Shown here: one piece after another, positions 9,601 through 57,153 of the stretch | Layout: every line of letters begins with the position of its first letter | Numbering within the stretch: the first letter of the stretch is position 1 | DNA from: Balanoglossus misakiensis | Taxonomy: Eukaryota; Animalia; Hemichordata | Direction of reading: 5' to 3' | Assembly: GCA_040954595.2 (NCBI GenBank) | Contig: CM082577.2 | Span: forward strand, 18,140,303 to 18,204,302 | Length of the DNA stretch: 64,000 nucleotides | Translations under genes and position numbers: made by a program | Notes under the pieces: generated by a model | Told to the model about the DNA's origin: nothing | Databases searched by the model: none | Seen by the model: the letters and a program-made list of their open reading frames with translations, nothing else

Positions 9601-10460
9601 TTTTGATGTTTTTATGGTGTTGAGTTTTGTTATGGATTATTTTATATGTTCTTCACAAAAAATCCAAAGGAATGACAATCCTACACTTCAAATTCTTTTG
9701 TCGGGATTAAAATAAGGTGTATTCCTGTGAGTTGATACAGGAATGTATTACACATTACAAATCAAGCAAAAAACGTTTGGGGGTCTTATGATCGGAAGCG
9801 GTACTATGATGCAGTTAGCAGTTATTATATAGCACTGGAATTCTAGTATATTTTGTTATTCCTAAACATTGACGGTGGAGTGAAACACATTGCCCGGAAC
9901 GCTGACATGAATACATATGTTTCGATCTTTTATGTTTAAGCGAGTGATAAGCTGCTATTTCTTGCTCCAAAAAGATTCGCTGCAACTCTAAATTTGGCGA
10001 CGTAGCCAATACCCGTTTCAGTGTTTAATAAGTGTATAACTCAAAGCAAAGCAAAATTTAGAACTATTACCCACCCTTCAAAACATTGTGATGAAATGCT
10101 TGAGACTCAGATCTGGAAAGCCCTTAGTTTGAAATTTAGCAGTGACTTTCTGGTGACATTGAATGTGACATACATAATAATAAAACTGTCTGGCCACGTA
10201 ACCTCCCGCATTGATCAGTTAAGCTTTTGACTCCTTAGGTTCATTGCAATAACATGCGAAATTATTTCGTGAGCACGAGATAATTATCTCGTGCGCACGA
10301 CTTAGAATCTCGTGCTCACGACTTAGTATCTCGTGCGCACGACTTAGTATCTCGTGCGCACGACTTAGTATCTCGTGCTCACGACTTAGTATCTCGTGCT
10401 CACGACTTAGTATCTCGTGCTCACGACTTAGTATCTTGTGCTCACGAGATAAAAACATTT
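6623..10460. mobile_element. Foldback-like DNA transposon derivative with ~750-bp inverted arms (IS3EU-like left end), inserted in a HINE unit
   Basis: 6661-7410 is the reverse complement of ~9646-10460 with scattered substitutions. The arms carry 21-bp tandem units TCGTGAGCACGAGATACTAAG (5 left, 8 right). The left end TATGAAAGCCCGTTAGGGAC resembles TAYGG termini. The right tip is missing, so no TSD is visible. Confidence 0.75.
7790..9645 (+). pseudogene. Degenerate non-LTR retrotransposon ORF2 (RT and C-terminus), CR1/L2 group
   Basis: Translated motifs PGWN...W...G.P..G...ELMRRSRAQFK, NYRPVA, QFGFKPGHGT, FMDASKAFDYV, GVKQG, LIYADDLV, KYLGH across ORFs 7940-8497, 8521-8814, 8995-9597; frameshifts and stops. 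Confidence 0.9.
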
Positions 10461-12764
10461 TTTTTTGCTTTGCATTTTTGCTAGAAAGGGAATTTTTACA
10501 TTTTAATCGTTTTTCACAAAATCCAATATGGCCGCCATACTCTTCGACCAATCACATTCCTCTTCGCAAACTTGATAGACATCTTGAGAAGAAGATTTTT
10601 GAAATTTTACTAGGGTTTTTCGAAAATCCAATATGGCCACCATAATCTTCGACCAATCACAATGATCTTCGCAAACTTGATGGACCTCAGTTTGGTCACC
10701 ACATACCCCAAACCGCGTGACTCGGTTATCGCCAGTTCTGGAGAAGAAGATTTTTGAAATTTTGACCAGATTTCAGAAAAACAACTGTAGCAAAAAAACT
10801 GCAACATTGACAGCAAAATATCCAATTACAAAAATGATGGGCAGAAGGTACACTACCAGCACACCAAATCTGAAGTAAATCTGACTTGTAGTTTCTGAGA
10901 TCTGAGATTTGCATTTTTCCAGAAAATCCAATATGGCCGCCAGGTCACGTGACTAATTAAAAATTCAAGAGTTCAATGCACGACTACCCATTGACCTTGA
11001 CCACTGTAGCAAGTTTGAGAAGTGTACCTGCAGCGGTGTCTGAGATCTAGAGCGACAAAGAAATGACACAAGAATAAAGAAAGAATTAAAGCTGCAAGCA
11101 GCATTGTCGGGCCCAAGCGCTGATCTTGAATTATATATGCACAGTATGAATGAGAAAAAACAGAATTTTCTATCGTATGTATTATCTCATGGCATAACAA
11201 GGATGTGTGTATTTTGCTGCTGAAATAGGGTGAAGTAGGTGAAAGGTCACCTAAGGTCACCCAACATTTGGGCAAAAAATTTTGATCCCACACTGGTCCA
11301 TGTCCAACAAAAAACAAAACTCTAGCTCTATTGGTTCGCCTGTAATTAGGTATGTGCATATTTAATGAGGTCAGCAGGTGTCACAGGTGACTCAAAAATG
11401 TGGCTTTACATTTTGGTCCCATCCTACCAAATGCCATGGCTGTATCTGCTCTGGATGCTGAGATATGCGAAAGTAGGTCAAAGGTCACCAGAGGTCACGC
11501 AACATTTGGGCAAAAAATTTTGATCTCATACTGGTCTGTGTCCAACAAAAACCAAACCTCTAGCTCTATTGGTTCGCCTGTAATTAGCTATGCACATAAT
11601 AAATGAGGTCAGCAGAGGTCAAAGGGGTCATGAAAAGTAGCAAAATATTTTGATCACACACTAATCCACATTCATCAAAAACCAAACGTCTAGCCCTATA
11701 GGTTAGCCTGGAATTAGATATGCAGAAATACTAACGCGTGATAAGTAGGTCAAAGGTCATGTGAAAAATCGCCGAAAAATTGTAACATATTTTAGTCACA
11801 TGACGATTGATATCCATGAAAAGAATTTGTATGCTATCAATTTTTAGACTAGAAAAAGGAATTTCAATTTTTCACTGCTTTTTACAAAATCCAATATGGC
11901 CGCCATAATCTTCGACCAATCACAATGCTCTTTGCAAACTTGATAGACATCAGTGTAGTGACCATACTCCCCGAATCTTGCGACTCAGTCATCGCCCGTT
12001 CTGGAGAAGAAGATTTTTGGAGTTTAACTATGGTTTTTCTAAAATCCAATATGGCCGCCATAATCTTCGACCAATCACAATGATCTTCGCAAACTTGATA
12101 GACATCAGTTAGGTGACCACATACCCCAAACCCCGTGTCTCGGTTATCACTGGTTCTGGAGAAGAAGATTTTTGAAATTTAAGCCAGATTTCAGAAAAAA
12201 AATTGTAGCAAAAAAACTGCAACATTGACAGCAAAATTTCCAATTACAAAAATGATGGGTAGAAGGTAGTCTACCTGCATGCCAAATTTGAAGTCGATCT
12301 GACTTGTAGTTTCTGAGATCTGAGATTTGAATTTTTTCAGAAAATCCAATATGGCCGCCAGGTCACGTGACTAATTAATTATTCACAAGTCACTGCACAT
12401 CTACTCATTGACCTTGACCACTGTAGCAAGTTTGAGAAGTGTACCTGCAGTAGTTTCAGAGATCTCGTTGGCCGAAGAAATTGACACAAGAAAAAAGAAA
12501 GAAAGAAATATAGCTGCAAGCAGCGATGACGGGCCCAAGCTTAAGCCGAAGGTCAAAGGTCATAAGAGGTCACCCGAAATTTGGGCAAGAAATTTTGACC
12601 CCCATACTGGTCCGTGTCCCACAAGAACAAAATCTCTAGCCCTATTGGTTCGCCTACAATTAGGTATGCGCATAATTAATGAGATAAAGTGTAAGGCTCC
12701 ATCAGGAGTTCCATCCCTCCAAATGCCAAGGCTGTATCTGCTGTGGATGCCGAGATATGGTAAA

Positions 12765-13630
12765 GTAGGTCAAAGGTCACCTGAGGTCACCCAAAATTTG
12801 GGCAAAAAATTTTGACCCCATACTGGTCCATGGTCAGCATAAATCAAACCTCTAGCCCTATTGCTTAGCCTGGAATTAGGTATGCACATAATTAATGAGA
12901 TAAGCAGGTGTCACAGGTGACCCCAATTTTGGCTTTTCAATTTTAGTCCCAACCCTCCAAACGCCAAGTCTGTACCTGCTCTGGATGCGGAGATATAGGA
13001 AAGTAGGTCAAAGGTCACCTGAGGTCACCCAAAATTTGGGCAAGAAATTTTGACCCTATACTGGTCCATGTCCTACAAGAACGAAACCTCTAGCCCTCTT
13101 AGTTAGCCCAGAATTAGGTATGCACATAATTAATGAGATAAGCAGGTGTCACAGGTGACCCCAATTTTGGCTTTTCAATTTTAGTCCCAACCCTCCAAAC
13201 GCCAAGTCTGTACCTGCTCTGGATGCGGAGATATAGGAAAGTAGGTCAAAGGTCACCTGAGGTCACCCAAAATTTGGGCAAGAAATTTTGACCCTATACT
13301 GGTCCATGTCCTACAAGAACGAAACCTCTAGCCCTCTTAGTTAACCCAGAATTAGGTATGCACATAATTAATGAGTTAAGCAGGTGTTACAGGTGACCCC
13401 CATTTTGGCTTTTCAATTTTAGTCCCAACCCTCCAAACGCCAAGTCTGTACCTGCTCTGGATGCGGAGATATGGGAAAGTAGGTCAAAGGTCACCTGAGG
13501 TCACCCAAAATTTGGGCAAGAAATTTTGACCCTATACTGGTCCATGTCCCACAAGAACGAAACCTCTAGCCCTCTTAGTTAGCCCAGAATTAGGTATGCA
13601 CATAATTAATGAGTTAGGCAGGTGTTACAG
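12765..13630 (+). repeat. 238-bp tandem repeat (~3.6 copies) inside the innermost HINE
   Basis: GTAGGTCAAAGGTCACCTGAGG recurs at 12765, 13003, 13241 and 13479. Confidence 0.9.
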
Positions 13631-14322
13631 GTGAGCCTAAAATTGTGCCTTTTATTTTGGTGCCATTGTGCTCACTGACCAATAGACAGTCACTGTACAG
13701 GACTATTGCACAGACCAGAATTCCACAATAAGACATAGACATAGCTTAACCATAGAGGTATAATTAAAGGTATAAATTTAATAAAAAAAATAATATAAAA
13801 AAATCGGTCGATTTTTCATATCATTTTTTTTCGCTTAAAATTATTGACAAATGCTAGGCTAGCTGCACACCAAAGTTGGAGATGATCGGCCTAACAGATT
13901 TTGAGATATGTATGCATATTTATCCAAAATACGATGTGGTCATAGCTTTACTATGTAAAGTATAGGCACATGGCTTGGGCGAAAAATATGAAAAATAATA
14001 CTTAAAAATCTTCTTCTCAAAAGTGACATGGCCTTTGGCCTTGACATTTGGCATGTAGAACCCTGGCCATATGGCCCACAAAGTATCTTAACAGAATTTT
14101 GATATCTCCATTCATATGCAAATTAGGTCGATTTGAAAACTTTGCCCATATATGGTCATCAGGTCACGTGACTTATTAAACATTCACAAGGGTACTGCAC
14201 TAGCTCTCATTGGCCTGCACCATTGTGCCAAATGTGAGATTTGTAGGTTCAGCCGTTTTCAAGATCTAGCTGGACAAAAAAATGACACAAGAAGAAGAAG
14301 AAGAAGAAGAAGAAGTAGAAGA

Positions 14323-14774
14323 AAAACCCCAGTAATACCAATAGGGCCCAAGCCTGCTGGGCTTGGGCCCTAAAAACCCCAACGAAACCAATAGGGCCCA
14401 AGCGCTTGCGTGCGCTTGGGCCCTAAAGAAAGACTGAAAAATTCCAACGAAACCAATAGGGCCCAAGCGCTGCAGGCGCTTGGACCCCTAAAAACCCCAA
14501 CGAAACCAATAGGGGCCCAAGCCTGGCTTGGCTTGGGCCCTAAAAATTCCAACGAAACCAATAGGGGCCAAGCGCTGCAGGCGCTTGGACCCCTAAAAAC
14601 CCCAACGAAACCAATAGGGGCCCAAGCCTGGCTTGGCTTGGGCCCTAAAAATTCCAACGAAACCAATAGGGGCCAAGCGCTGCAGGCGCTTGGACCCCTA
14701 AAAACCCCAACGAAACCAATAAATATGCCAACAATACCAATAGGGGCACAAGCCCGATAGGCTTGTGCCCCTAA
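14323..14774 (+). repeat. Stack of eight ~52-bp HINE 3' termini, each with a GC-rich hairpin
   Basis: Units of the form AAAA(C/T)(C/T)CCAACGAAACCAATAGGG(G)CCCAAGC-loop-GCTTGG(G/A)CCC. Units 3-7 alternate between two variants (~105-bp dimer). Confidence 0.9.
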
Positions 14775-16698
14775 TTACGATAGTATTTCGCGATGTACAG
14801 CATGGATATGAAGATAAACAATGAGCAAATAGTGATACATATGATCGTTTTTTTTATGATGCAACTACATCTACCCATAATCGATTTGACATTGGTTCAG
14901 CCTTGCTGCATTTGTTAGAAGTGCCTTCACCCATGCATGTTCGAGACCCAAGTGGAATGAGCGGAATCATTTTGGTTTTACACAGCATCTACGAAAGAAC
15001 GCAGTCGGTGACAATATTCTTTGCAACACTTCACCCCAAAGCAATATCCTCATAATACGACGAGAGACTGAACTGATTAAGATAGATTGCTATGTCCTTG
15101 ACAACGTATTTTAATCGAACATTTTTTGCACAAATAATCATTTTCCACTTACGCAGACAATGGGAAGCCATTACATGAATTATATTTTCGTATCATTAAC
15201 ATCTGCAGTAGTGGAAATGTTTGCCACAATTGTTAAACGACAACCTGGTTTATAAACGCCAAGCAACAATTGAACTATCATTTTTTGTCATAAGTTTGCG
15301 ATATAAATCATTTCACGACAATTAGAAATGTTCCAAGAGGGCGGTTTTGATGTACTTCTTGTTGATTGTGTGAATATTTGGTGGACTTTTGATCATGTAT
15401 ATTTCCAGTCAAAATGACCAAAGTGAGAAACTGAAAATTAGAGACACAAATTGGCATACACTCCCCTGTTAACACCATTTTCAAAAATAGAAAACAGGCT
15501 TCCAACGTCTGTTATATTATTGAAGAGTGATCACCCTTGAACACTACAAAAGGGATAAGTTTAGATGCAACAAGATATATTTTAATAAAATTGTGAATGA
15601 AATTATCATGCAAACTTCACAAAGTACCCTTATTAGATGATAACATTCGGAATAAAGTTAAGTTTCTACTTTAAATTAATCTCTCGAAATAAGTTCGGAA
15701 AAAAACTAACAGCAGTAGAAGCAGACCTTTCGCATTAGCAACGAACAGTAGAAACAGACCTTTTGCATTAGCAACGAAACCTTCTTCATCTGAAAAAACA
15801 CTGCAGATGATACGCAGGGCAACACGTAACATATCCTTTGTGACGTACTTTGTCAGAAAGACGGGTTGCTAGGAATAAGACGGTGTTTCTTGGCTTCATC
15901 ATCTACATGCAATGAACCTGTAAATGTCATTTCAACTTTATTAACTGATACAAGATCTCCTTATCAGTTCATTGCACTCTTTTCCTTCTGGACATACATG
16001 TACAGATGACATTCTAATTTGCCCTGATTTTACAATGTGTGTTGCCCCTAGCAGTATCATGCAGGATTAGTATCAGTTTAAAGGTCTACGCTATCATTTA
16101 TACTATGAACTCTTTTCGGTGCAGAACAACAAGACTATATAATCTATGTTCTACCGCAACATATAATGTCTGTGATCGAAATAGCGATCATATCAGCATG
16201 AACTAACACAAGCACACAAATATAAATTAACGATTGAGTCAATCAAAATGACAATTCAATCATGAAATCGCTACTGTCAAAATTAACTTTTGGTGATAAA
16301 AATGCAAAGTCGATAATTCAACACTTTATCTCACTGATGGTTCACAGTTGTGATGTCACTCATAATTATAAGTTACCAGTTGTTTGGGTCTGGTGCTGTT
16401 CATGCGTCAATTTAGTGATCGACGGGCTTCTTATAGATAGTATCTCCATATAAATTCCTGCATACCTTGATTCATCGCTGATGTTTTGTGTGTCCCAGTA
16501 GAAATTAATCTCTTTTGAAATCAAGAACATCTGAAATTTACAACATTAATGATATTCTCATCAAGCAGATTTGGTAAAGAATGTCAACGGAAGCGGAAGT
16601 TCCATCGAACTTCTCGGAGAGAAATGTATCAATATAAACGATATATCTGAGGAATTAACAATTAAGCTCTAACATCTTTGGAAAGATGGGAAAGTTTA

Positions 16699-24197: not shown

Positions 24198-24278
24198 TTT
24201 TTTAGGTCCCATTGGTTTATACCATGGGACCTTATGGGATCGGTTGCGTCTGTCTGTCTGTCTATCTGTGTGTGTGTA

Positions 24279-24312
<34 letters not shown>

Positions 24313-25670
24313 CACATCAAAAACTTGAAAACCGCTGAGCGTATAACCTCGATATTCGGTGTGTAGATGCAGGCCAGGCTGTAGATGGGAGTTTGTTCAA
24401 ATGAAGTTGCCATTGCCAAAATATGCAAATTAGCTGGGAAAATGTGAAATTGGTCAAAACTCAAAAACTCGACAACCACTGGTCAGAGTGATTTGAAAAT
24501 TGGTATGCATGTACCTTATGTCTACCTCAAACAGTCCTGTATGTTTTGAGCTAATATTATCGATTTTCTATTTTTTATGCATTTTTTGTATTTTTCCACA
24601 TTATTGGTAAAAAAAATAGTCATTTCTGAAAGTGATAGGCCTACTTCTTTGAAATTTAGTATGAAGCTTCCTATAGGTTGTCTGAGTAACCATTGTTTTG
24701 TTCTATTTGTTGCAAAATTTGCATATTAATGATTTTGCCATTTTTGGTCAAACATTTGTTTCTTGAAAACCGCATGCCAGATTGCTTTGCAATTTGGTAG
24801 GCATGTTCCTAGGGGTAACCTTAGTAATATGTTGTTAAAAAAATGTGATATTTGCATAAATGTGTTATTGGGGAAATATTTTCCATTTTTTGTCAAAAAT
24901 TGTTTTATCTGAACTGCTTGCCACATTGCATTGAACTTTGGCAGGCATGTTCCTCGTAGTGATTGAAGTAAGATACTATACAATTTTGGTTATATTTGCA
25001 TATTTGTGTTTTTGCCACTTTTGAACAAAAAATTTCTGTGAAACTGCTTGTTGGATTGCTTTGAAATTTGTTTTTTTTCTCTGATTGCATTGAAATTTTG
25101 GATACAATTACATAACACATACATGTTTATGTGCAACTTTTATTCAATTCTGATATCAGAAATATTCAATATTTAGTGATTTGTTTGTAAGTTTCTTTGT
25201 GTTTGGTTAGCAAATCTTCTCTTAAACCAATTGTCCAGTTGTTTTGAAAGTTACTGTTTACAAGGAGTTGTTACTCCCAACTTGGACATGTTTACATAAC
25301 TTTAATAGGCCAGCTGTTACAGAGACCACCAGCTATTAAATTTTTAATTACCAGCGGCAGGTCAGTAAGCGTCTCTGTCTGTCTGTCTGTTACTCTGTCT
25401 GTTCCAGGGCTGACTGAAAGAAGTTGCTTGTCATATATGTTTGCACAGACAATTTTGGGTCAAAAATAATTTTTTCTAGCACCACTTGTAAGACTGCCAT
25501 GACACATGACAGTTTATCGGGCCTGTTCCTTGTTAATTTTTTTACATTCCATATTTCTATATTATTAGATCATATCTGCTTGCAATGTCACCTGTAATTT
25601 TTATTCTGGTGTATCCCTATTTCTGCGTAATCCTCAAATGGGACCACAGTGTCCTTGACGCTTTTGTTTT
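24198..25670 (-). mobile_element. HINE-like Helentron-associated element, apparently complete
   Basis: T-run plus hairpin AGGTCCCATTGGT...ACCATGGGACCT, adjacent (GTCT)/(GT)/(GTAT) microsatellite, subTIR ATGGGACC near the far end, terminal TTGTT. A second copy lies in the opposite orientation at 43166-44173. Confidence 0.8.
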
Positions 25671-37699: not shown

Positions 37700-38600
37700 A
37701 ACACGTGTAGTTAATTAACCTTGAAAGTCAATGGTAAGGTCAAATATTGCAAATAAGCATCACTTTTCCAATCATCCGTGATTTCGATAACATCACTGGG
37801 AATACCACACTGCAGTGCCCTGGAAGCACCCCTCTACGTAGGCTGTGGGCTGAATAAAAGTGTGGCTGCACCCCTGATTTGCTTAAGTGAAGGCGGAGCT
37901 TAGAGCTAAATTTCCCTGGTAACAAAGGGTGGAAAGAACCATCTTTCTCAGGAAGCACAAATGCTGGGCCATCTTTGGGTACTGCAATGGAATAGGAAAA
38001 TGCACGCAGCACAGTTGTGATAGGGCACAGTGGATGTTTAGGGATTGCAAGAAGAGGGACTAACAGCTTTCTATCACGAATCTGGATAGTCTTGGTCCAA
38101 TGCAAGGTGATTGAGAGCCCCCAGTGGTGAATCACAAAAGAATTGCGAGAAAGATGTTTGGAGCTATCAAAACCCTTGACAGAGGGGGCTAAAAAGTTTG
38201 AACGTCTAAGGAGCCCAAACAGGCTGCCAGAACACTGAATCAAAAGCACTACTGAAATCTAACTGGCGATAAACTGCAAGTAGTAAGTGCCGTTCCCTTC
38301 TCCCTGGCGATTCCCTTTAAAACTAGTAACAAAAACCAATTGTCTTGCAATGGGTTGGTAAACCCACACTCTAAATGCAAAATGAGAACAATGTTCAAAT
38401 ACAGTCTAACAATGGAAAACTTAAGTCTATGAGCGAGAAATGCAGCATATCTGCAAACCATTTCTGCAGAGGCTGGAACAGGTGGGTAACCCACTAAAAT
38501 GCAAAGTTCTAAGTAAGACTTCCAGTGGGTACTGTGTGTACGCTCTGTATTGGTAGCAAATGCATTCGATCTGTATCTGGCAACTTCCAAATCAAGTTGT
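37700..38600 (-). pseudogene. Tyrosine recombinase of the Ngaro/DIRS element (frameshifted)
   Basis: SAM-like N-terminus (AFATNT...W..YL..C...YAAFLA...YL). Catalytic motifs GLLRRSN, WTKTIQ, LCP, HSLRRG, and WKSDAYLQY in a shifted frame. Confidence 0.9.
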
Positions 38601-38713
38601 GCTTCCAGCTGCTGATCTTCTGGATCTATGGGAAAAGGGCCAGCAAAGCCATTTTAGACCTATAAGCAGGTAATGAATTGTAGGTACAGATAGGGTGATA
38701 CACACCCCCTGGA

Positions 38714-38950: not shown

Positions 38951-39401
38951 CATTGGCGAAGAACCCAATGAGGGAGATTACCAGCATTCGAGCAGCTGTG
39001 CGGTGGGAACCGCATGAGACTTTGAGCCCTGTAAAGTGATCGAGGGGCCATCATAGTTCACTGTGTGTAGGGTGGAAACCCCAGCCATGTATACAGTTCC
39101 AATACAGGTGGAGGGAGAAACCATTCAAGCGATTGTGGACACAGCAGCGGAAATCACACTAGTGTCTGACCAGCTGTTCGAACGCTTGGAGAGGAAACCG
39201 CCACTTATTCATGAGATGACTATGCGAGCAGCAGAACGTGAAATGGCAATGAAAAGTCTGAAGGTTGGACCACCAGGCATTAGGCAACTTGGCATTAGGC
39301 AACATGGCATTAGGCAACATGGAGTTCCAGGAACCTGCATGTGGATTTTATGAAAGAGAGGAAAGTCACGATCGACATGAACCACACTACCCTGTGCGTA
39401 G

Positions 39402-41062
39402 CTTTGTCGGAAATGACAGAGAAACCTGTCTTTGGTGTAAGAAGAATGCCGCCAAGGAAGGATTCTTCTATTCTGAAAAGGAAGGAATTCGTAAAAATGA
39501 CAGACCAAAACAAGAAGGAATTTCTCGAAAATTTCTGTGTGGCACATGTGGTATGAAGCATGGTCCAAAACAATGCCCAGCATTTGGGAAGTTGTGCTCA
39601 AAATGCAAGGGAAAGAACCACTTTGCGAAAGTTTGTAAGACGAAGCGAATACATTCCGTCGACACCGAGTATTACAACGTAGAAGATGAGCCAGAAGAAT
39701 AATTTATTGGCATGATTGGGAACCATAATGTAGTGGATGGGTGGAGCGCTGACCTAAATGTGAACGGTAACGTAATAAAATTTCGACTTGATACTGGCGC
39801 CGAAACAAACGTGCTTCCGTTGAGGATCTACTCTACTATGAAAAATAAAAACAGTCTTGAAAAGACAAATGTGATGTTGTCCATGGAGGCAAACTGAAAC
39901 CTGTTGGCAAAACTGTAATGCGATGCGTTGCTGAGAAAAAATCCGACGATATAATGTTTATGGTAGCAGATGTTACATCGCCACCTGTGATAGGCGCAAA
40001 TGATTGTGAAAGACTTAATCTTGTGCACCGAGTTATGACCGTGGATAGCGAAGCCATCTTCAATGAATATGAGGATTTATTTGAAGGTCTAGGCTGTTTT
40101 GACGGTGAGCATCATATTGTAATAGACAAGACTGTTGAACCTGTAGTCCATCCCCCGAGGAAAATACCATTCATGCTGCATGACAAAGTATTAGCTGAGC
40201 TGAAACGAATGGAAGATCTTGGTGTGATTGAGAAGGTCAATGAACCTACTGATTGGGTCAATTCCATTGTCATAGTTGAGAAAGACGATGGTCGTATACG
40301 TATATGCCTTGACCCACGTGACCTTAACAAGGTAATTAAACGTGAACACTATCACGTCCCAACAGCAGAGGAAATTACAAGTGATCTGTGTGGTGCTACT
40401 ACGTTTAGTAAACTTGACGCAAAGGATGGCTATTGGCATGTCAAATTAGACAACGAGTCTTCAAACCTGTGTACATTTAATACTCCATTTGGAAGATATA
40501 AGTACACGCGCTTGCCATTTGGGTTGAACTCGTCAGGTGAGGTATTCCAGAAGAAAATGAAAGAAGCGTTTGAAGGTTTGCCAGGTACAAATATTCATCA
40601 CCAGGAACACAGCGAAGGGATGAAATCCGTACTTCATATGGGAGAGTTGTTAAAAAGCCGGACAGATATGGCTATGATTGACGTTGATGGACTGGAACTG
40701 ATATAAACTGAAACGATTGACAAATTGACGAAATTTATATGTTTATTGTTGGATGTCGAAAAAATTATATGTTTGAGAATTTCATTAATAGTTGAATTAA
40801 TTAACGTATTAACTTATACTAAATTATTGTTGTTAATTTGTACCGAGCCGTTTGATGTGAATGTTATACAAAAAGCACTTGACAACACGCCACTTTTCTA
40901 AATTCAAATTAATCTCCAAAAACGGGGAGATGTCATGAATGCTAATCAATACTGTTACATAATACATGTATAACGTGACCAGGTGTCACTACCAACGGGA
41001 CTAGGAATAAAGCGTGGTTCATTGTTCAACGTGTCCGACTAGTCTGAGTGTCAATCATTACA
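39402..41062 (+). mobile_element. Second Gypsy element (B; Mag-like double zinc knuckle), 5'-truncated and internally deleted, with 3' LTR
   Basis: Gag CGTCGMKH...CPAFGKLCSKCKGKNHFAKVC, protease LDTGAE, RT RICLDPRDLN/LDAKDGYW/RLPFGL to ~40590. PPT AAAACGGGGAGA, then LTR TGTCATGA...AATAAA...TCATTACA (40931-41062). Confidence 0.85.
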
Positions 41063-41994
41063 GGGACCAGGAGATCCCCTTAGCATATGTTGGTAACCAT
41101 AGCGAAAGTGACAGCCACACAGAGGTACCACAAAACACAGTGATGAGAGTTATCGGGGCAATGGATACCAATCTGGCAGATTATGTGATCGAACCAGGGG
41201 TTGACTCGGGGTAATGATACCCAGAACAGTTCATTCTAGTGGTCAAGTGAATGTGATATGTTTAGTCAACCAAACCGATAAGCTCGTAGTGATCAAACAG
41301 AAGCGTAGTTAAAAGCCTGGCTGACACCAATGAACCGTGTGCTAACAATTTGCCAGGTGTCAGGGTTGTGTCCGAGCCACAGCCCACACCCAATGAGGAA
41401 CTTCCTGAATATTTACAAGAGTTGTTCACACGATCTGGTACTAACCTGACAGGGGATGACGCACAGAAATTAAAAAATATGTTGCTAGAATTTGCGGATG
41501 TATTTGCAGCAGACGAATTCGACTTGGGGAATTTCTACTGCCATAACTCATACTATAAACACAGCAGCTGCATCCCCTGTAAAGCAGCGAATGAGGCGTA
41601 CCCCAATGCGATTTGCTGATGAAGAGGAAGCTTACCTCAGGAAAATGCTCAAAACCGGACTAATGATGTTCCTAACTCGGTTTCGATGATGAGCTTGACT
41701 CCATATCAGATCGAAGATCAGTTGTTGTGGGTCCGGAGATGATTGATGAGGCCGATCCGGGCCCGTAGGGCACGCGCACATACGGGACAGGTGTGGGTGG
41801 GTACTGCGTTGGGAGTGTTGACAGCTCGAGCTTTGCGCGCTTCACGTTTCTGCTGCGTTTCCATCGTGTGTCGCTTCTCTGCTGCACGGGTACGGGCGCC
41901 AGTGGAGACTTTGCTAAGGCAAGTTGAGTGGTTGGTAGTAGTCCATGGGCCAGAGACCGAAACCCTCTCCCCTGAGGAGTTTTGCAGACATATA

Positions 41995-43165: not shown

Positions 43166-44173
43166 GAGAAGATTTGCTAACCAAAAACAAAGAAACTTAC
43201 AAAAAAACTTGCTAAATATTAAATATTTCTGATATCAGAATTGAATAAAAGTTGCACATGTATGTGTTACGAAATTGTATCCTAAATTTCAAAGCAATCA
43301 GAGAAAAAACAAATTTCAAAGCAGTTTTCAAGAAAATATTTGTTCAAAAGTGGCAAAAATACAAATATGCAAATATCGCCAAAATTGTACAATATCTTAC
43401 TTCAATCAATATAAGGAACATGCCTGCCAAAGTTCAATGCAATGTGACACGCGGTTTCAGAGAAAACAATTTTTGACAAAAATTTGAAAAAATGTCCCCA
43501 ATAACACATTCATGCAAATATCATAATTATTTTAGCAACATCTTACTTGGGTTACCCCTAGGAACATGCCTACCAAATTGCAAAGCAATCTGGCATGCGG
43601 TTTAAGAAAAACAAATTGACCAAAAAAGGCAAAAATTGCTCAAAATTCTAAATTTGCAAATTTTGCAACAATTTGAACAAAACTATGGTTACTCAGACAA
43701 CCTATAGGAAGCTTTATACTAAATTTCAAAGAAGTAGGTCTATAACTCCAGAAATGAAGATTTTTTACCAATAATATGGAAAAATATAAAACAATGCATA
43801 AAAAATAGAAATTCGATAATATTAGCTCAAAACATACAGGACTGTTTGAGGTAGACATAAGATACATGCAAGCCAATTTTCAAATCAATATGACCAGTGG
43901 TTGTTGAGTGTCTGAGTTTTGACCAAATTTAGGTTTTTCCCAGCTAATTTGCATATTTTTGGCAATGACAACTTCGTTTGAACAAACTCCCATCTACAGC
44001 CCAGCATGCATCTACACACCAAATATCGAGGTTATACCCGCAGCGGTTTTCAAGTTTCTGATGTGGACGGACATACAGACATACATCCATACATCCATAC
44101 ATACATCCATCCATACATACAGACGCAACCGATCCCATAAGGTCCCATGGTACATACCAATGGGACCTAAAAA
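43166..44173 (+). mobile_element. HINE-like element, same family as 24198-25670, opposite orientation, one end missing
   Basis: Reverse-complement match to 24198-25222. (CATA/CATC) microsatellite and hairpin AGGTCCCATGGT...ACCAATGGGACCT followed by an A-run. Confidence 0.85.
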
Positions 44174-45290
44174 TGGCTTTGTACAGCTTTCTGTTGATCC
44201 ATGTTTTTTATACAAAACAAGTTGATGATGGGATGATCGTAATACTTATCTGGATAGACGTTCTTATTATTGCAGCAAGTACTGATAAATCAGTGTTGTT
44301 AAAATGAATCAAAAAAGTACTTGTGTAAGATACATGAGAAATTAGAAATGATCGACTGTAAACCAAGGTGTACTCTCTCCGAATAAAAACTTGATTGTAG
44401 TGATAAAACGCCAGCTGATTCCAGAATTTGTCGTGAAGCTGTTGGGAGTCTGATACATGTCACAGTTGGCAGTTAAACACGTCTGCAGATATTTGAAAGG
44501 TACTCTTGATTACGAGTTATGTTTCAAGACGTGTGATGATAATTTATCTTTAACGGGTTATAGTGGTGCAGATTGGGCATCATGTACAGATGATAGAGTT
44601 AGTGGATTTTGTTTTAGTCTAAAACAAGTCCTCTCATTTCGTGGAAATCAAAGAAGCAATCGACTGTCGCTATGTCCTCTTGCGAAGCAGAATATATTTC
44701 ACTAGCCGCAAATATTCAAGAAAGTATGTATTTGATCCAGTTATTGAATAATGTTGGTATTAGTGATAAGCAAGAACCAGTTTTGATTTTTGAGGACAAC
44801 CAGGTTACAATTGATTTAGTCAAAAATCCAGTCAATCAAAGGTCAAAACATATTGACAGACGTTACCATTTTATTCGTAAAGAATTATCCAGTGTTAAAG
44901 TTTTTCTGAAATATTGTCCTACAAATGACATGGTGGCTGATATAGTGACCAAGCCAGCAACGAGATGTAAATTAGACAAGTTCAGAGAGTATATCTTTGA
45001 TTAACTTTCAAACATTGTATTGAACAAATGTTTATGTTCATTACTCATGAGATCAAGTGGGGAAGTTAGAATACATATTCATGATCATTTCATTGTAATG
45101 TAAATGTCGTTATGTAATCATTGAATAGTACTGATGGATGTGACAAGCGCCCCCAATTGGTACAGTTTGTAATAAATTACCCGGATGTTACTCTCCACTC
45201 CGGCCATATTGTGAAAGGATAGTTCTGGTGTGCTGTCTTTGTCCATCCGACATTATTTCCTTCATCATGGGTGATCCCCACAACTCAACA
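44174..45290 (+). mobile_element. Ty1/Copia remnant: RT end, RNase H, PPT and 3' LTR
   Basis: GFVQ..VDPC, YSGADWA, SWKSKKQ..VAMSSCEAEY, IFEDNQ, RSKHID.RYHF, YCPTNDMVADIVTK. PPT CAAGTGGGGA and an LTR-like segment ~45064-45290 ending TCAACA. Confidence 0.88.
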
Positions 45291-45459
45291 GAGAACGCAG
45301 TTGGCGCCTAGCTACTTTAAGTGCAAGACGGCGAGGAGAGAGTGATATATTTTGTAAGTTTAATTTGCACTGACACCAGAGCAGCTGCGATATTGCACCA
45401 CCAGGAGTTGCTGGCTGTAGTGAGATTTACAACACTGTTCCGGCACTACCTACTAGGGA

Positions 45460-47122
45460 ATAAATTTGTGGTACGAACGGACCACATCTATGGCTGAGCC
45501 GTGACGGGTTTGAAATTGACTGAGGAATTCTCTGGAAGAAACCGGAAGGAAATCGGGGACAGAGGTTGGTAGTTCCCAGATCCATGTCTGGGAGATTATT
45601 GACATGAACTACACCATACCGCAGCCGCTCACCAAGGTGTCCAGAGAACTTTGGCAAGAATTCACCGGAAATACTATTGGTACCGCATGGCTGTAGACGT
45701 CCGTGAATTTATCGCAACATGTGCTGCGTGTAATCCGAATAAGAAGCCACCAGGACATGCACGGTGGCCGAATACGAAGTATCATGCAGGTTTTCCAATG
45801 GAGAGAGTCCATTTGGATTTTCTTGGACCACTGCCCGAAACAGCTAGGGGTAACCAGTATGTGATGGTAATGGTGGATCAGTTTATAAAGTGGGTGGAAT
45901 GCATTCCATCTCAGTCAGCTGAAGTGACCGCCCAAGCAGCAGTTGGAAAATTGTCTCAAGATTTGGATGTCCGTTTGAGATCTTCACTGACCAGGGCAGC
46001 AATTTGAAAATCGATTGTTCACTTCAGTATGCGGGCTGTTACAGATACATAAGGCCAGGACGACGCCGTACCGCCCTTCCGCAAACGGCCAGGTGGAACG
46101 CCAGAATAGGTCGCTGATGGACGCCGTGTGGTGTTACATAGGTAAAAACCAGGCTGAGCGCAAGTGGGACAAACATCTTCCACAGATTGCAGGGACCTTA
46201 CACACTTCAGTGAATAGGAGCACCGGTTTCGCCCCAAACCGGATAATGTTGGGACGAGGAGTGACCTGATATATGAATCCCCAGAGAAGATAGACGGCCA
46301 CTACGGGGTGTCGTTTGTTAACTTATTATTTAGCCATATTATTTGTTCAAAAGTCGTTATTTAGCATATTTATATGTATATAACTGTAGGTTTGCAAACC
46401 ATTTAAGTCCCGATAATTTATGTGTAAATAATATCAAGTCGACTCAATTATATACATAAAATGTATTTTATGCACTTTTATTTATATATAATAAATTATT
46501 TCTAATAATATAGCTAAATAGTAAGTTAACAAACGGCACCCCATAGGCCAGACTCCAGAGGAATATGTGCGTGACCTGGGGGAGGCTGTCCAACAAGCAC
46601 ACTATGTCGCCCGTACACATGTGCGGACGACAGGAGAAAATGAAGAGAGACTTCGATCTGCGTATTAATGTGCATTCGTATAAAGTAAGAGATTTCGTCT
46701 ACCTACTTGACACCGCCACTCATCGCGGGAAATGTAGGAATGTATGCCCACCGTGGAAAGGGCCGGGTGTGATAGTGACTAAACTTACACTGTATACGTA
46801 TCGTGTGAAGTTGCCGCGTAGGGTGATAACTGCTAACCACGATCGCATGAAGCTATGCGAGTCAGCTGACCTTCCCAGGTGGACCACTCGGTTTCGCAAG
46901 ACTTTGCTACAAAACGTGGAGGCCGGGAAGGGGGAAGCTCTTTCAGAGGAACCGTATTGCATATGCAGGGGGCCTGATGACGGCGAGCTCATGGCGCAGT
47001 GCAACAGCTGCTATGAATGGTTTCATTGCGCTTGTTTGGGCCTATCATCAAAGCGAGAGAAGAGTGAAGCGAAATTCCTCTGCCCTACATGCAACAGCGA
47101 GACAGATGACGACTTGGGCTAG
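45460..47122 (+). pseudogene. Gypsy integrase (H2C2, rve, GPY/F) with C-terminal PHD finger
   Basis: YYWYRM..DV..F...CAAC, ERVHLDFLGPLP...VDQF.KW, TTPYRPSANGQVER.NR, PWKGP, then YCIC-x11-CNSC-EWFHCAC-x15-CPTC in the same ORF as the GPY/F module (46565-47122). Confidence 0.88.
46302..46545. mobile_element. IS3EU-like MITE inserted in the Gypsy integrase
   Basis: TIR TACGGGGTGTCGTTTGTTAACTTA / TAAGTTAACAAACGGCACCCCATA. Flanks GGCCAC and GGCCAG give a 6-bp TSD with one mismatch (alternatively 4-bp GCCA). Removing it restores the frame EKIDGQTPEEYVRDL. Confidence 0.8.
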
Positions 47123-50049
47123 GAAGGATAGGATCTTTTCTCGTTGGGATAACTGGAGTATTCCTGTATACGAGAGGTTGATGCACCCACGGGGTAACAA
47201 CAATTTCTTTGATGAGTGACAGTTGCATTATTAATGAGCAGACTTCTAATGTTTGCTTTTTTACAAATAGCCGAGATGATGCCAATGAACGTCGGGAGAG
47301 TGAAGCTCACCGACTTATGGATCCTTTGGATTTTGCGGAGATGGCAATAGCGGCCAATCAGCCAACTGAGGTTGAGGGGTACGCTCAGGAGCAGTCTGAC
47401 CTGGCGATGAAGCGGGAGACCTCCAATGGTCATCATTCGTCAGATGAGCTCTGGAGGCGGAGTTTTCTGGAGAGTGGATGGCCAGATGCCTTCCGCCATC
47501 CGTTGAGAGCAGCGACGATAGCAGCAGACCACAACAGTTGTGGGGACGAAGCCATGTCCGCCATGAGGTCACCTCATTGGTCCATGAGTGGATGCCAGGG
47601 GGTTTAACTGATTACGGTTACGCTGAAATGCCAGCCAACTCAAGGGGTGCCAGCAACGAGGACGGACTGGGGTCCATGCTGATCCCAAGGGGATGGAGGA
47701 ACTGATGGGCAAGCCCGTAGGCGTTCCAAATAAAGACCTGTTGGTCCAGCGGAGTGGACAGGACAAGACGCCAGGTGGGGTAGTAGCGGGCCCTCGATGG
47801 TCCCAAAGAAGAGGGATTATATCAGCAGCGTCTGCTAGACTTGCCGACGCCGAGCTCGGTGACCCCGACAAAGAAAAATGTACGGGTGTTGGTGGAGGAG
47901 ACGATTGCGAGGATGCCACCGCTGCCCAAGATTCCTGTGGGCAGTAGAGCGGGAGGTCGACCTGGGGAAATCCGCGATGTGGCGACCGTACCACGACCAA
48001 TTCCGATATACAAACGTAAGATACCTTAGTCACTTGACGACGACCTTTAGCGGCCGCGTCCACTCTCAAACTAATAGTACTTTAATACCGGAAGCGGGTT
48101 AAAATCACTTCACAGCCCCTGGTTTTGGAGCCAACGCTTTCAGCAAGGTGTCTAGGTTGAAGCTTGCACGAGGCATTTCTTCACTTTTCAATATGGGTAC
48201 TGGAGGAGCACTGTGGTCAGAAGAGCTTACGTCTTTACGACGGTCCGCGCCATTGGTGAAACTTGCCATAGTCTCTGCAACAGACGTGGCCGCCATCTTG
48301 GAAGTCATGTTTTTGCCGGCACTGGCTTGACCCTGCCAAGGTTCCATCAGCTTCCAGTTGTCTGAGCTCGCCCAATGGACTGATATTCATACTAGCCATG
48401 TCGAAAGAAATGCCGTGTTTTTCTGCCCACAGATGCACCTCCAAACATGGTGTCATTGACGACAACATCAGACTTGCTGCGTCGACAGTTGGTTGTCTAC
48501 ATGACCAGTCGAAGCCATATCGACGCTGGGCTTATCCGTCACTACCACTACGTCTCTCGGTGACTAAATAGTTAAACAGATACGTAACTGTAAAAGCAAA
48601 CTGCTATGACAAAGTGAAAGCAGCGTGTTCGTTCGAGCAGTGCAGTGCCGCATTCAAAAGTACTGAGCCAAAAGGCGAAAGGTGGCCTTCCCTGATTGGC
48701 TGAAAGTTGGTCATGTGAGAGTAACTGAGTATGCGTGATTTAAACACCGCTCGAAGAGCTAGTACAATAATCACGGAAAGCGCAACTGCATCCTGCGTTC
48801 GGAACCGCCCAACTTAGTTCGGTTCATACTATCCAGGAGAGGCGGGAATTGTCGGAAGCCGGGCTAGGGGAGAGAAGGTTACACATTACCGAAACTTTAA
48901 ATGGACTGGCCAGTCTGGGAGTCATTCAGTTTGTAAACGATGAAAAACATTTGCAGAACCTCTCGGGGTTGTAGTCTTATCCTTGAAAGTGTTCAGGCGA
49001 TATTGTAAATACGACCCATCCAGTAAGAACTAGATTTAGCCTCTCTGGTAATTATTACCGAGGTCATTGACTCAATGCAAACACAATGAAGAAATGAAAT
49101 AAAAAATGATACATTGTAACAATGAAAAAAAATGTAAACATAATGAAATTAAAATGCTAATGTTAACACAATTCTTTTGGTACTAATCTCACCCCATACC
49201 CTGCCTGCATTGCCATAGTCATAACTTCCGATAATATTGTTGTATAAACACCATGACTCCGCATATGAATCTGGGCGATCATGTTTTTAAACTGGTTGAT
49301 GCTAAGCGGGAATGTGTAAACAATCAATCAAATGATGTCTCTGGCCTAAAGACTATTTTATTATTTCTTATTGTCAGACTGCGTAAATGATCGCTCGTCT
49401 CAAGACTGAGCATGCGCAATTGAGTCAACTTACAAATGTGTACTCTGAACAACAAACACCAAATTATTCCTTGTGACCAAAATACTGCCGGAGTAAAAGT
49501 TTCGTTGCTATCCACTTATTGTTATTTAGATTATTTTTGTTAAACTAAAATTATTAAACTAAAATTAAAATTAAACTAAAAAGTCACGCTCGTGAAAATC
49601 AATCGTGGTTGGACTGTGAGAAACCAATGAAAAAGTCCAGCCTTAGGAAGACTTTCCAATATATGAAGATTGCGATTATGCTGGCGAGACAGCAGCTGCG
49701 TTTGTATCCGGTCATCTTAGTTGTATATCACAAAGTCATACACATTTATATAATAACTATTTGGGGTTAATGCTAGCCAATTTATGTGCACTTCTAATCT
49801 GACTGCTCTACTAATCTGCATGATAAATGTTTCACAATGCACATGCAAACATTCTGTAATTTGAATATCTTAAAGCAATCACAAACACAGCATATGTATG
49901 TTGATCTCTATTACATGAAATTACATGTACACTAATTGGACACTCCCCCTAACAACCCAAATCTCTCCCTGTAGATGAATAAACATTTATATGCAAACTT
50001 ATATTTAAAAAATAATACTATTTATTTCCTAAAAGCTCTATACACTACT

Positions 50050-54900: not shown

Positions 54901-57153
54901 CTTGGCATCAACGCAGTCATTGTCTTTGTCACAACTAGAAAATTTGTCTAACTTTGGATCCAAAATCGTATTGAAACCGCCACAAATTACAATGTGGTCG
55001 CCATCTAACATCACTTGATTAACAAAATTACAAAGGCTAGCAAAAAAAGAAAATTTGGCAGAAGTACTGTTCGGAGCATATATATTGAAAAGACGGAGGG
55101 AAGATCCCTCTAAATCTAATTTTACACTGATAAATCTCCCAATGCTGTCTTTATGAACCTCACTAGTAGAAACAGGGATGTTATTTGAAAAAAGTATTGC
55201 AACTCCACAGCTGTGTATTGTGCCGTGGCTATATACTACCGATTTCAAAATACCTTGGAAATTCTTTGTGTTCGAGTGTTACAATAAACGTCTCCCATGA
55301 TAAGAAAAAACGTCTAAGTTCATGAAACTGAATACCGCACTTTGTTTATTTTGCAACAAAGTTACCGTTTCAAACGTTCGTAATCCCACTGTGAGATTGT
55401 CTGTAGTCTACTCTGAACCTTGTATGAGGATGTTTTGCACTGACAACCAAGGAAACTTCCTAATGATGAAGAGCAATATATCGAGTATTTAAAACGACAA
55501 ACTCATTCGATTTCATACGAAGAAATTCAACAAAAATTGGCGGAATTTTCGCAAGCAGACGTGTCTATACCCACCGTCTGTCGAACCGTCAGAAATCGTT
55601 TGTCCGACAAAACGTGGACTTAGAAAAAAATGGCGTGTTGCAAACGACGAGAGTTGTTTAGCGTGTCGAATGCTGCTCTACGAAGCTCGTAGTTACCTTC
55701 TGACCGGGACATTTACGCTTGAACGGACTGGGTTCCCCCCACTTCAGGTTGGTATATTCCTCTGAAGCAGAGACGTGAATTGCTAGTTCCGCGGGTTGCA
55801 GTGTATCCCGTCTGTTGAACTTTCTTTTGAACTTTCTTTTAGAGAATCGACGTATTGCGAAGAGAGACGATTGAGATGAAAATTAGCGGTGTAGGATATA
55901 GAGACGACGTACTAAACTGCCGTGTTGTATTCTGAATTTGTGTTGTTGAAATGAAATACAACGGAAGAGTTTGAACCGCATCGCTGTATGGACTGATAGT
56001 TTTGTGGCAAATTCGGGCGTGCGAGGCCGCCGCTAACCTTGCAGCGATCACCCGGCCGCTTGAGAACTTTCTCGACCTACGCATGAACTTGTTTGTGGCA
56101 GCAAAATATATGAACTCAGCGTGACAGGCTACATTGTTTGAAAAATAACGTCGGCGCGTCATCGCGCCCAGCGGATTTTTTTTCAGATCTGGCTTTTTCA
56201 ACGTTTGTTTGGCGTTCATGATTAGTATAAATCCATGTTCTTGTTCCGCTATTTCCATTCCGAAAACCCCAAAGTTTTAAACGTACACTTTGACTAGAAA
56301 AGGCCTCAGACACCTTCATATGCTGTCCGGCAGCCGGGGTGGGATATCCGACCGCGGTGCAGCTCAAAGTGGCGTGGAGCTGGTCATGTTGGGAGCGGTG
56401 CTGCCGGCCGGTGGATCGACGTCTTAGCCTACACTTTCATACCCACCGGCGTGCGGCAATCGGCAAGAACCCATCGGAAGGAACGCAGTCCGTTCAAGCG
56501 TAAATGTCCCGGTCAGAAGGTAACTACGAGCTTCGTAGAGCTGCATTCGACACGCTAAACAACTCTCGTCGTTTGCTACACGCCATTTTTTCCAAGTCCA
56601 CGTTTTGTCGGACAAACGATTTCTGACGGTTCGACAGACGGTGGGTATAGACACGTCTGCTTGCGAAAATTCCGCCAATTTTTGTTGAATTTCTTCGTAT
56701 GAAATCGAAGGAGTTTGTCGTTTTAAATACTCGATATATTGCTCTTCATCATTAGGAAGTTTCCTTGGTTGTCAGTGCAAAACATCCTCATACAAGGTTC
56801 AGAGTAGACTACAGACAATATCACAGTGGGATTACGCACGTTTGAAACGGTAACTTTGTTGCAAAATAAACAAAGTGCGGTATTCAGTTTCATGAACTTA
56901 GACGTTTTTTCTTATCATGGGAGACGTTTATTGTAACACTCGAACACAAAGAATTTCCAAGGTATTTTGAAATCGGTAGTAAAATGTTACCTCCCCATTC
57001 TCTATTCCATATTTTCTCATCACTCTTTTTACTATAGGTCTCTTGCAAGCAAATAATATGGAAACCTTTACTACGGCACCAATTGAAAATAAGGTTGCGT
57101 TTTGTTCTTTCTCGTATACCTCTAATGTTCAGTGTTACTATTTTACAAGCCAT
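51969..57153 (-). pseudogene. Tx1/L1 ORF2: AP endonuclease, RT and C-terminal Cys motif (frameshifts, one insertion)
   Basis: TLNIRG, CLQET, GVAILF, NIYAPN, GGFN, SDH, GYWKFN, KSPGYDG, DFEKAFD, GVRQGCPLS, MADDTT, CVFC...H.YFEC. Confidence 0.93.
55236..56979. mobile_element. TA-flanked IS630/Tc1-mariner-derived foldback element with ~495-bp inverted arms
   Basis: 55236-55730 is the reverse complement of 56487-56979. TA TSD; removing the element restores host codons GNILYSHG. Each arm translates to PRKL..EEQYIEYLKRQT.SISYEEIQQKL...VSIPTVCRTVR..L...TWT(W)KK, an IS630-like HTH. Confidence 0.82.

Follow-up and report, generated by a model that had tools for sequence, protein, structure and literature searches.

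A predicted H3K4-reader PHD finger ends the integrase of a clade of animal Gypsy retrotransposons and persists in a dead hemichordate copy

The choice of insertion site is understood for few retrotransposons, and the chromodomain is the one built-in histone reader with a demonstrated role, one that points to heterochromatin. The chromodomain of MAGGY targets heterochromatin marked by H3K9 methylation (PMC6673714; bioRxiv 10.1101/2021.11.30.470311), and an engineered tether made from the ING2 PHD finger shifts HIV-1 integration toward transcription starts, according to a review (PMC8149907).

The presence of PHD fingers in retroelements is already published, and we found no description of a PHD-tipped clade from molluscs and echinoderms. 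The element REM1 reportedly has a PHD within its Gypsy Gag-Pol, as in Gypsy-7a_cRei of Chlamydomonas. For the PHD in the Gag-Pol of Gypsy-7a_cRei an effect on insertion has been suggested, and insertions of this element are intergenic 2.6 times more than expected by chance (PMC9940879). De Mendoza et al. (2019) describe retrotransposon PHDs as widespread (PMC6673714), and Grau-Bove et al. report the co-occurrence of PHD with reverse transcriptase (RT) and integrase domains, with cnidarian fusions that are orthologous to PYGO1/2 (10.1101/2021.11.30.470311); Supplementary Table 6 of that study may list members of the clade analyzed here without describing it as a clade. The Hydra DNA transposon Ginger1-9_HM has a Gypsy-like integrase with a GPY/F motif, a C-terminal PHD and a Ulp1 protease (PMC2836005), and the bdelloid LTR elements Juno and Vesta encode, downstream of pol, a third open reading frame (ORF3) that is not env and specifies a DEDDy nuclease (PMC5408684).

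Our literature search (Repbase, GyDB and most subscription journals lay outside it) returned, among the papers listed, no animal Gypsy clade described as having a PHD at the integrase C terminus. The term 'PHD' is absent from the main text of one mollusc and two annelid surveys (PMC6238403, PMC8556966, PMC8220671), which define the named aquatic Gypsy clades (MolGy1-16, PolGy, LGF, CsRN1 and Mag), and from the main text of an errantivirus survey (PMC13524379); the PHD clade may already carry one of the aquatic names. In PMC5408684 the term occurs only in a reference title, and the preprint 10.64898/2026.05.21.726589 held nothing relevant on PHD. The Klebsormidium Gypsy-DNMT3 paper (PMC5890265) was considered as a description of a terminal PHD and set aside, the term having 0 occurrences in its main text. 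No paper on TatD in LTR retrotransposons was found by title and the start of the abstract.

We analyzed a stretch of 64,000 nucleotides from Balanoglossus misakiensis (the window), which is rich in repeats, has a G+C content of about 39% and looks eukaryotic; its relevant features are collected in Table 1. A preliminary description had proposed that a Gypsy integrase in this window ends in a complete C4HC3 PHD finger, just after the GPY/F module and followed by a stop, with Tyr, Met and Trp at the positions of a methyl-lysine cage and Asn in place of the usual Asp of CDxC. The translation of 46955-47092 (+), YCICRGPDDGELMAQCNSCYEWFHCAC...CPTC, bears out the complete finger: all eight zinc ligands are present, and the match to Pfam PF00628 covers profile positions 1-47 of 47 (35.1 bits for a cut-off of 24, E = 1.3e-8). 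A stop-free frame (46547-47122) is common to the finger and the C-terminal module of the integrase. The proposed placement stands with respect to this shared frame and is otherwise looser than was described, with about 30 linker residues preceding the finger and nine residues separating its last cysteine from the stop. Tyr, Met and Trp occupy the cage positions that had been named, aligned with those of Spp1, DIDO and CFP1, and the Asn is likewise there. The motif of the preceding module is WKGPG, which lacks the GPY/F aromatic residue, so that the GPY/F assignment is by homology (the relatives shown have WKGPG or WKGPA).

Table 1. Coordinates of features in the window and, in the last two rows, of the additional coding regions of related loci
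Feature	Position	Strand	Basis
Fragment matching the pre-RT region and RT start of the PHD family	41062-41665	+	tblastn
RNase H, C-terminal part of the same pol, with stops	45237-45485	+	tblastn with intact relatives
Integrase H2C2 zinc-binding domain and DDE core	45594-46263	+	Pfam PF17921, E = 4e-14; tblastn with intact relatives
MITE with terminal inverted repeats and TA on both flanks, inserted in integrase	46304-46543	.	
Integrase post-core helix and GPY/F-type module (WKGPG 46754-46768; HDR 46838; frameshift near 46630)	46583-46860	+	
Variable linker before the PHD, about 30 residues	46861-46954	+	top-residue frequency, pN/pS
C4HC3 PHD finger, integrase end	46955-47092	+	translation, Pfam, PDB alignment, AlphaFold/Foldseek
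Methyl-lysine cage positions	Tyr 46955, Asp 46976, Met 46991, Trp 47018	+	
Asn at the CDxC position	47003	+	
pol stop codon, nine residues past the last PHD cysteine	47120-47122	+	
Full gags with N-terminal PF12836	L005:2795-5089, L009:1650-3962, L010:374-2416, L012:1743-3680, L017:705-2858		
Third ORFs with TatD domain	L005:10551-13166, L006:4373-5596, L007:2164-4578, L008:2827-6129, L009:9097-11439, L012:9115-11262, L013:6876-9671, L014:2193-4235, L017:7518-9032		

The copy itself is dead. Searches with intact relatives (tblastn) place the C-terminal part of its integrase at 46583-47092, and the order from RNase H to integrase is kept; the zinc finger and DDE core are spread over three frames, with frameshifts near 45955 and 46000, and the three catalytic-motif residues of the core are present but in different frames. 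Because of these frameshifts and of the MITE inside the integrase, no working integrase is possible. The MITE (240 bases, AT-rich) is at very high copy in the source sample, with a summed contig depth of up to 6,000-16,000 versus about 45-200 alongside, and a related copy joins 46192 to 46546 across the site. Most of the RT is missing; the fragment at 41062-41665, which over 41528-41665 has 51-64% identity to PHD-bearing relatives, is possibly the 5' part of the same element, split off by later insertions and a deletion. We found no gag for this copy, no TatD remnant in the window (tblastn, E 0.001), no Rfam match over 44000-50000, and no direct repeat flanking the copy among the largest 20 of 35 repeat families. 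A second copy in the sample, about 87% alike, covers the module and the finger; over 46974-47092 it has 15 differences (5 silent and 7 changed codons, for 22 silent and 95 replacement sites), which leave the zinc ligands, Met and Trp unaltered. As a sign of selection this comparison carries little weight, because the second copy has indels of its own and both runs come from one sample.

The dead copy sits among other transposon fragments rather than in an evident promoter. A second, unrelated Gypsy fragment at 39262-40589 (+) comprises an ORF resembling a Cys-His knuckle and an RT (PF00078, E = 3.5e-13) and shares only some 30% identity with the PHD family. Two ORFs at 37740-38653 (-) have motifs that we take to be those of a DIRS-type tyrosine recombinase region (a Pfam scan of one of the two gave no supporting match), and a decayed fragment at 44200-45004 (+), which ends directly upstream of the Gypsy RNase H, is by its motifs presumably like a Copia RT/RNase H (with no match in Pfam). 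Copies of a repeat of approximately 1 kb lie in opposite orientation at 24199-25186 and 43202-44173, and two further elements have long complementary arms (97-99%), one with arms of 621 bases (6790-7410 with 9646-10266) and one with arms of about 500 bases (55234-55736 with 56480-56981). From 48113, downstream of the element, depth climbs several-fold; loose contig ends at that point indicate that a further multi-copy repeat begins there (48113-48300 and beyond).

To avoid biasing the family toward the finger, we searched for relatives using only the integrase zinc finger and core as the query, with the PHD excluded. This search gave 472 matches, and PF00628 ends Pol in 100 of the best 120; among the other 20, five are truncated within the first part of the finger, 14 stop short of it, and only one (P0274, a gastropod gene model) continues without it. 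A scan of DNA with core patterns only gave 44 loci, of which ten align through the PHD, all of them with 49-65% identity; not one of the other 34, whose identity is 46% or less, does so (contig ends truncate some of them). The preliminary description had asked for an inspection of integrase-PHD architectures and had suggested that the PHD may be the trait of a Gypsy lineage; 100 of the best 120 core-selected relatives and ten of ten close loci agree with it. A search with the C-terminal region of one relative (P0002) found 78 proteins, 71 of them with PF00628, and is biased because its query contained the finger. The core-pattern scan also finds sister families lacking the PHD in assemblies that contain PHD-bearing ones; the complete integrases of such sisters terminate in a low-complexity tail that includes a basic motif. 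Most matches are nameless; the named finger-bearing hosts are the molluscs Nucella, Pinctada, Haliotis and Ostrea and the echinoderms Diadema, Lytechinus and Acanthaster, and the matches from Ptychodera, Lingula and Elysia stop before the finger.

Relatives were also sought in other collections. None was found in the viral contigs scanned, and a metagenome scan with one protein gave only four loci. The ESM Atlas contains an automatically named integrase/PHD cluster, and its best cluster for the family (score 0.98, 99% PHD) has Mollusca as its commonest phylum. Hits 2 and 3 in the same resource (query P0004 residues 330-497) are PHD clusters with scores of 0.91 and 0.90 and similar features, and their few recorded members are from Chlorophyta and Streptophyta; we regard them as a lead to separate PHD captures in green lineages. 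Loci L005-L044 come from bacterial metagenome-assembled genomes (Sedimenticola, Thiodiazotropha, Stappiaceae and others) with many gag-pol retrotransposon contigs and, since the loci encode gag-pol retrotransposons, they are most likely host DNA. Five proteins (P0022, P0231, P0232, P0235 and P0237) have the public names of bacterial integrases. The databases thus hold PHD-tipped Pol proteins as 'uncharacterized' host genes or as integrases of bacterial symbionts.

Trees were built on the integrase zinc finger and core, with no PHD columns, as quick trees without bootstrap; they omit 26 proteins too short to score and every second PHD-bearing database protein, and the second tree further omits the long-branch P0177 and the shorter window piece. 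In the first tree one branch (SH-aLRT 99) unites 68 of the 69 PHD rows with both window pieces and two rows that lack the PHD; one of the latter (P0141) nearly duplicates a PHD row, from which it diverges inside the linker. The divergent row P0139 lies just outside this branch in the first tree and inside it in the second, where all retained PHD rows fall on one side (support 77). The RT/integrase phylogeny suggested earlier, which we ran on the integrase, therefore assembles the PHD rows on one branch, next to PHD-less sister elements, and a single gain is the simplest reading, if less firmly so for P0139. PHD distances follow core distances (Mantel rho 0.40, a value that none of 300 permutations reached and that near-copies inflate) about as closely as do those of the GPY/F module (rho 0.42). 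The likely origin of the finger is a single capture, at the base of the clade, of a host finger of the Spp1/CFP1/PHF2 class.

Conservation was assessed on the 110 of 137 proteins in which both the integrase and the finger are spanned, a selection that, being made by alignment through the finger, favours conserved fingers. Met and Trp of the cage are present in all 110, Tyr or Phe before the first cysteine in 108, and each zinc ligand in 108-110. The acidic position of CDxC, which we take to be part of the H3R2 pocket, is Asp in 94, Glu in 10 and Asn, as in the window, in only two; the second cage position varies (Asp 55, Trp 26, Tyr 15), both Spp1 and the window having Asp. The mean frequency of the top residue in the linker is 0.33. 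The cage columns are spaced like T234, F241, M246, E248 and W255 of PHF13, mutation of which abolishes H3K4me3 binding (PMC4915813). Uncorrected pN/pS over 45 pairs from ten loci is 0.19 in the core, 0.32 in the PHD, 0.37 in the GPY/F module and 0.73 in the linker (values from non-independent pairs with saturated pS), indicating that the finger is under purifying selection, as is the GPY/F module; a lack of such selection had been named as grounds for abandoning the proposal. The PHD is thus a real feature of the whole clade, maintained by selection and seen here in a dead copy.

The best PDB sequence matches of the finger are Spp1 (E = 1e-11), DIDO, CFP1, PHF2, EBS/SHL and BPTF, with ING4, PHF8 and TAF3 ranking lower, and no Pygopus chain occurs among the 55 matches of the window finger or among the 46 of the relative P0016. 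An alignment-based AlphaFold model (pLDDT 87.9; a single-sequence model with pLDDT 42.6 was set aside) superimposes on the PHDs of BPTF and Spp1 at 1.0-1.8 A over about 55 columns (Foldseek), only one match reaching E 0.001 because the domain is short. Most of the top structural matches are H3K4me3 complexes; the close ones also take in complexes with H3K4me2 and, by its entry title, one of PHF2 with a VRK1 peptide. Sequence and predicted fold together support membership of the H3K4me3-reader class. Of the earlier label, an ING/TAF3/BPTF-type reader, the class survives on cage and fold and BPTF is among the best matches; Spp1, DIDO, CFP1 and PHF2 belong beside it, and ING and TAF3 are more distant.

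Intact relatives have the Pol order PR-RT-RH-IN-PHD, and the best PDB match of P0016 is Ty3 Gag-Pol (E = 1e-102). A CCHC knuckle scores above cut-off in four of four gags scanned from PHD loci, together with PNMA or Retrotrans_gag matches. All five full gags scanned start with a helix-hairpin-helix match (PF12836), which among these five passes the cut-off only in L010; it does so also in P0063. Downstream of pol, intact relatives have a third ORF of up to 1,100 residues that ends in a TatD domain, above cut-off in all eight PHD loci having downstream sequence (two of the ten contigs end right after pol). Because the PHD-less sister L017 also has it, TatD is not tied to the finger. The motifs HxH and ETD, present in nine of nine TatD ORFs, and GExGLD, present in eight of nine, are presumably the main TatD motifs. 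TatD is also fused in an Acanthaster gene model (P0075); in a single case (P0267, residues 1065-1234) a Tpt1/KptA RNA 2'-phosphotransferase domain (E = 4e-43) occupies the interval between integrase core and PHD; and in a distant PHD-less relative an ORF with a C2H2 zinc finger lies downstream (L025:8652-9791). In two of nine regions scanned (L008 and L013), a purine tract followed by TG, some 250 bases before CA and a TGGCG start of primer-site type, suggests LTRs of about 250 bases, paired copies not being seen because the contigs look like collapsed repeats. A 99.7% repeat of 1,187 bases in L005 was rejected as an LTR pair or a basis for dating; it looks like an assembly overlap, since it precedes the purine tract and adjoins a gap.

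On balance, we read the finger in the window as the intact tip of a dead Gypsy copy from a mollusc and echinoderm clade. The conserved PHD of this clade is a predicted reader of methylated H3K4 that probably anchors the integration complex on chromatin of the promoter type. The finger would remain on the mature integrase after Pol processing, as is expected from its being the C terminus of Pol. It very probably binds the H3 tail at K4me2/3, in a pocket of Tyr, a second residue (Asp, Trp or Tyr), Met and Trp, in the way that Spp1, CFP1 and BPTF do. A flexible linker would allow the finger to stay on a nucleosome as the DDE core attacks DNA in the vicinity, and insertions would then, given binding, probably concentrate in or beside H3K4me3 domains. 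We infer such targeting from chromoviruses and from the engineered ING2-PHD tether. Grau-Bove et al. consider that targeting active chromatin should be detrimental (10.1101/2021.11.30.470311), and the intergenic excess of Gypsy-7a_cRei neither shows nor excludes promoter targeting. We are somewhat doubtful of the larger picture, in which an old, intact animal Gypsy clade would have captured a host H3K4me3 reader for insertion at active promoters, as a mirror image of the chromoviruses, and packed it with a TatD ORF3 and a helix-hairpin-helix Gag.

Conservation shows that the finger is needed and is silent on the step that needs it. The finger might bind methylated H3K4 without setting the insertion site, raising efficiency (for example, by keeping the complex on chromatin) or acting after integration, and De Mendoza et al. 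attach the same caveat to the MBD of Copia elements (PMC6673714). The position of the window copy among transposon debris also fits such a role, although as counter-evidence to targeting it is weak because dead copies persist where they are harmless. We nevertheless consider a role independent of site unlikely, given that the C-terminal position on the integrase is that of the chromovirus chromodomain, which directs integration, and that a PHD tether alone moves the integration sites of HIV-1 (PMC8149907). A different ligand, be it H3K4 at a lower level of methylation or a non-histone mimic of the H3 tail (a peptide from the host or encoded by the element), is a less probable reading again: the variable second cage position implies that subfamilies may differ in ligand, H3K4me2 complexes and the VRK1 peptide complex are among the close structural matches, and the binding of the VRK1 peptide by PHF2 counts against a reading of H3K4 only. 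However, the invariant Met and Trp with Tyr or Phe in nearly every protein form the pattern of a methyl-K4 reader, and H3K4me3 complexes dominate the top structural matches. Readers of unmodified K4 generally lack such a cage.

Sister clades integrate without any finger, which would suit a merely structural or multimerization domain whose reader surface is a relic; but Met and Trp of the cage vary no more than the zinc ligands do, with adjacent columns varying widely, and we hold this to be very improbable. The decay of the window copy and the unrelated insertions around it might even suggest a local accident, in which a host exon or another element was fused to a dead integrase in this genome. 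This has next to no probability and we reject it: 100 of the best 120 core-selected relatives and all ten close loci end in the same finger, the second copy in the sample spans module and finger, and PHD distances track those of the core. Copies without the PHD, which the preliminary description had offered as a sign of such a fusion, were looked for in the same way, and the outcome did not overturn its proposal. We retain the reading of a clade-wide predicted histone reader that probably tethers integration.

An integrase PHD with an invariant methyl-lysine cage throughout a clade provides a direct test of the strategy opposite to that of the chromodomain. Chromosome-level assemblies are available for some hosts (contigs of 35-77 Mb), and PHD-less sister families that share an assembly with PHD-bearing ones are built-in controls. 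Should the clade insert at promoters, it would supply a natural equivalent of the engineered PHD tethers and, across molluscs and echinoderms, generate variation close to promoters.

Among the described systems, the cnidarian PYGO fusions are likewise animal retrotransposons with a PHD predicted to read H3K4me (10.1101/2021.11.30.470311), but they are of the Pygopus type, whereas the 55 PDB matches of the window finger include no Pygopus chain. Gypsy-7a_cRei differs in belonging to a green alga and in having its PHD between RNase H and integrase, according to a figure legend (PMC9940879). Ginger1-9_HM shares the Gypsy-like integrase with GPY/F motif and C-terminal PHD (PMC2836005); it differs in having terminal inverted repeats, no RT, and a PHD accompanied by Ulp1, whereas Pol in relatives of the window element includes protease, RT and RNase H. 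Identity with Ginger1 was rejected on the RT and RNase H found in the integrase-PHD ORF of the relatives and on the RNase H upstream in the window. Juno and Vesta resemble the intact relatives in having a non-env third ORF with a nuclease after pol, but theirs is DEDDy rather than TatD, and the main text describing them mentions no PHD (PMC5408684). The host PHDs of Spp1/CFP1, DIDO, PHF2/PHF8 and BPTF share the C4HC3 spacing, cage residues and predicted fold; they sit in host chromatin proteins, whereas the finger described here closes a retrotransposon Pol. Judged by the chromodomain, chromovirus identity was also rejected, chromodomain Pfam families being absent from the domain tables of the relatives and a PHD occupying the integrase C terminus instead. 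Chromoviruses nevertheless share the Gypsy pol order, a histone-reader fold at the integrase C terminus after a GPY/F-type module, and family-wide conservation of that fold. Their reader is a chromodomain (for H3K9me in MAGGY), here it is a PHD of the class that reads H3K4me2/3, the mark of active promoters, and by analogy the element is predicted to work like a chromovirus-type tether with a different reader.
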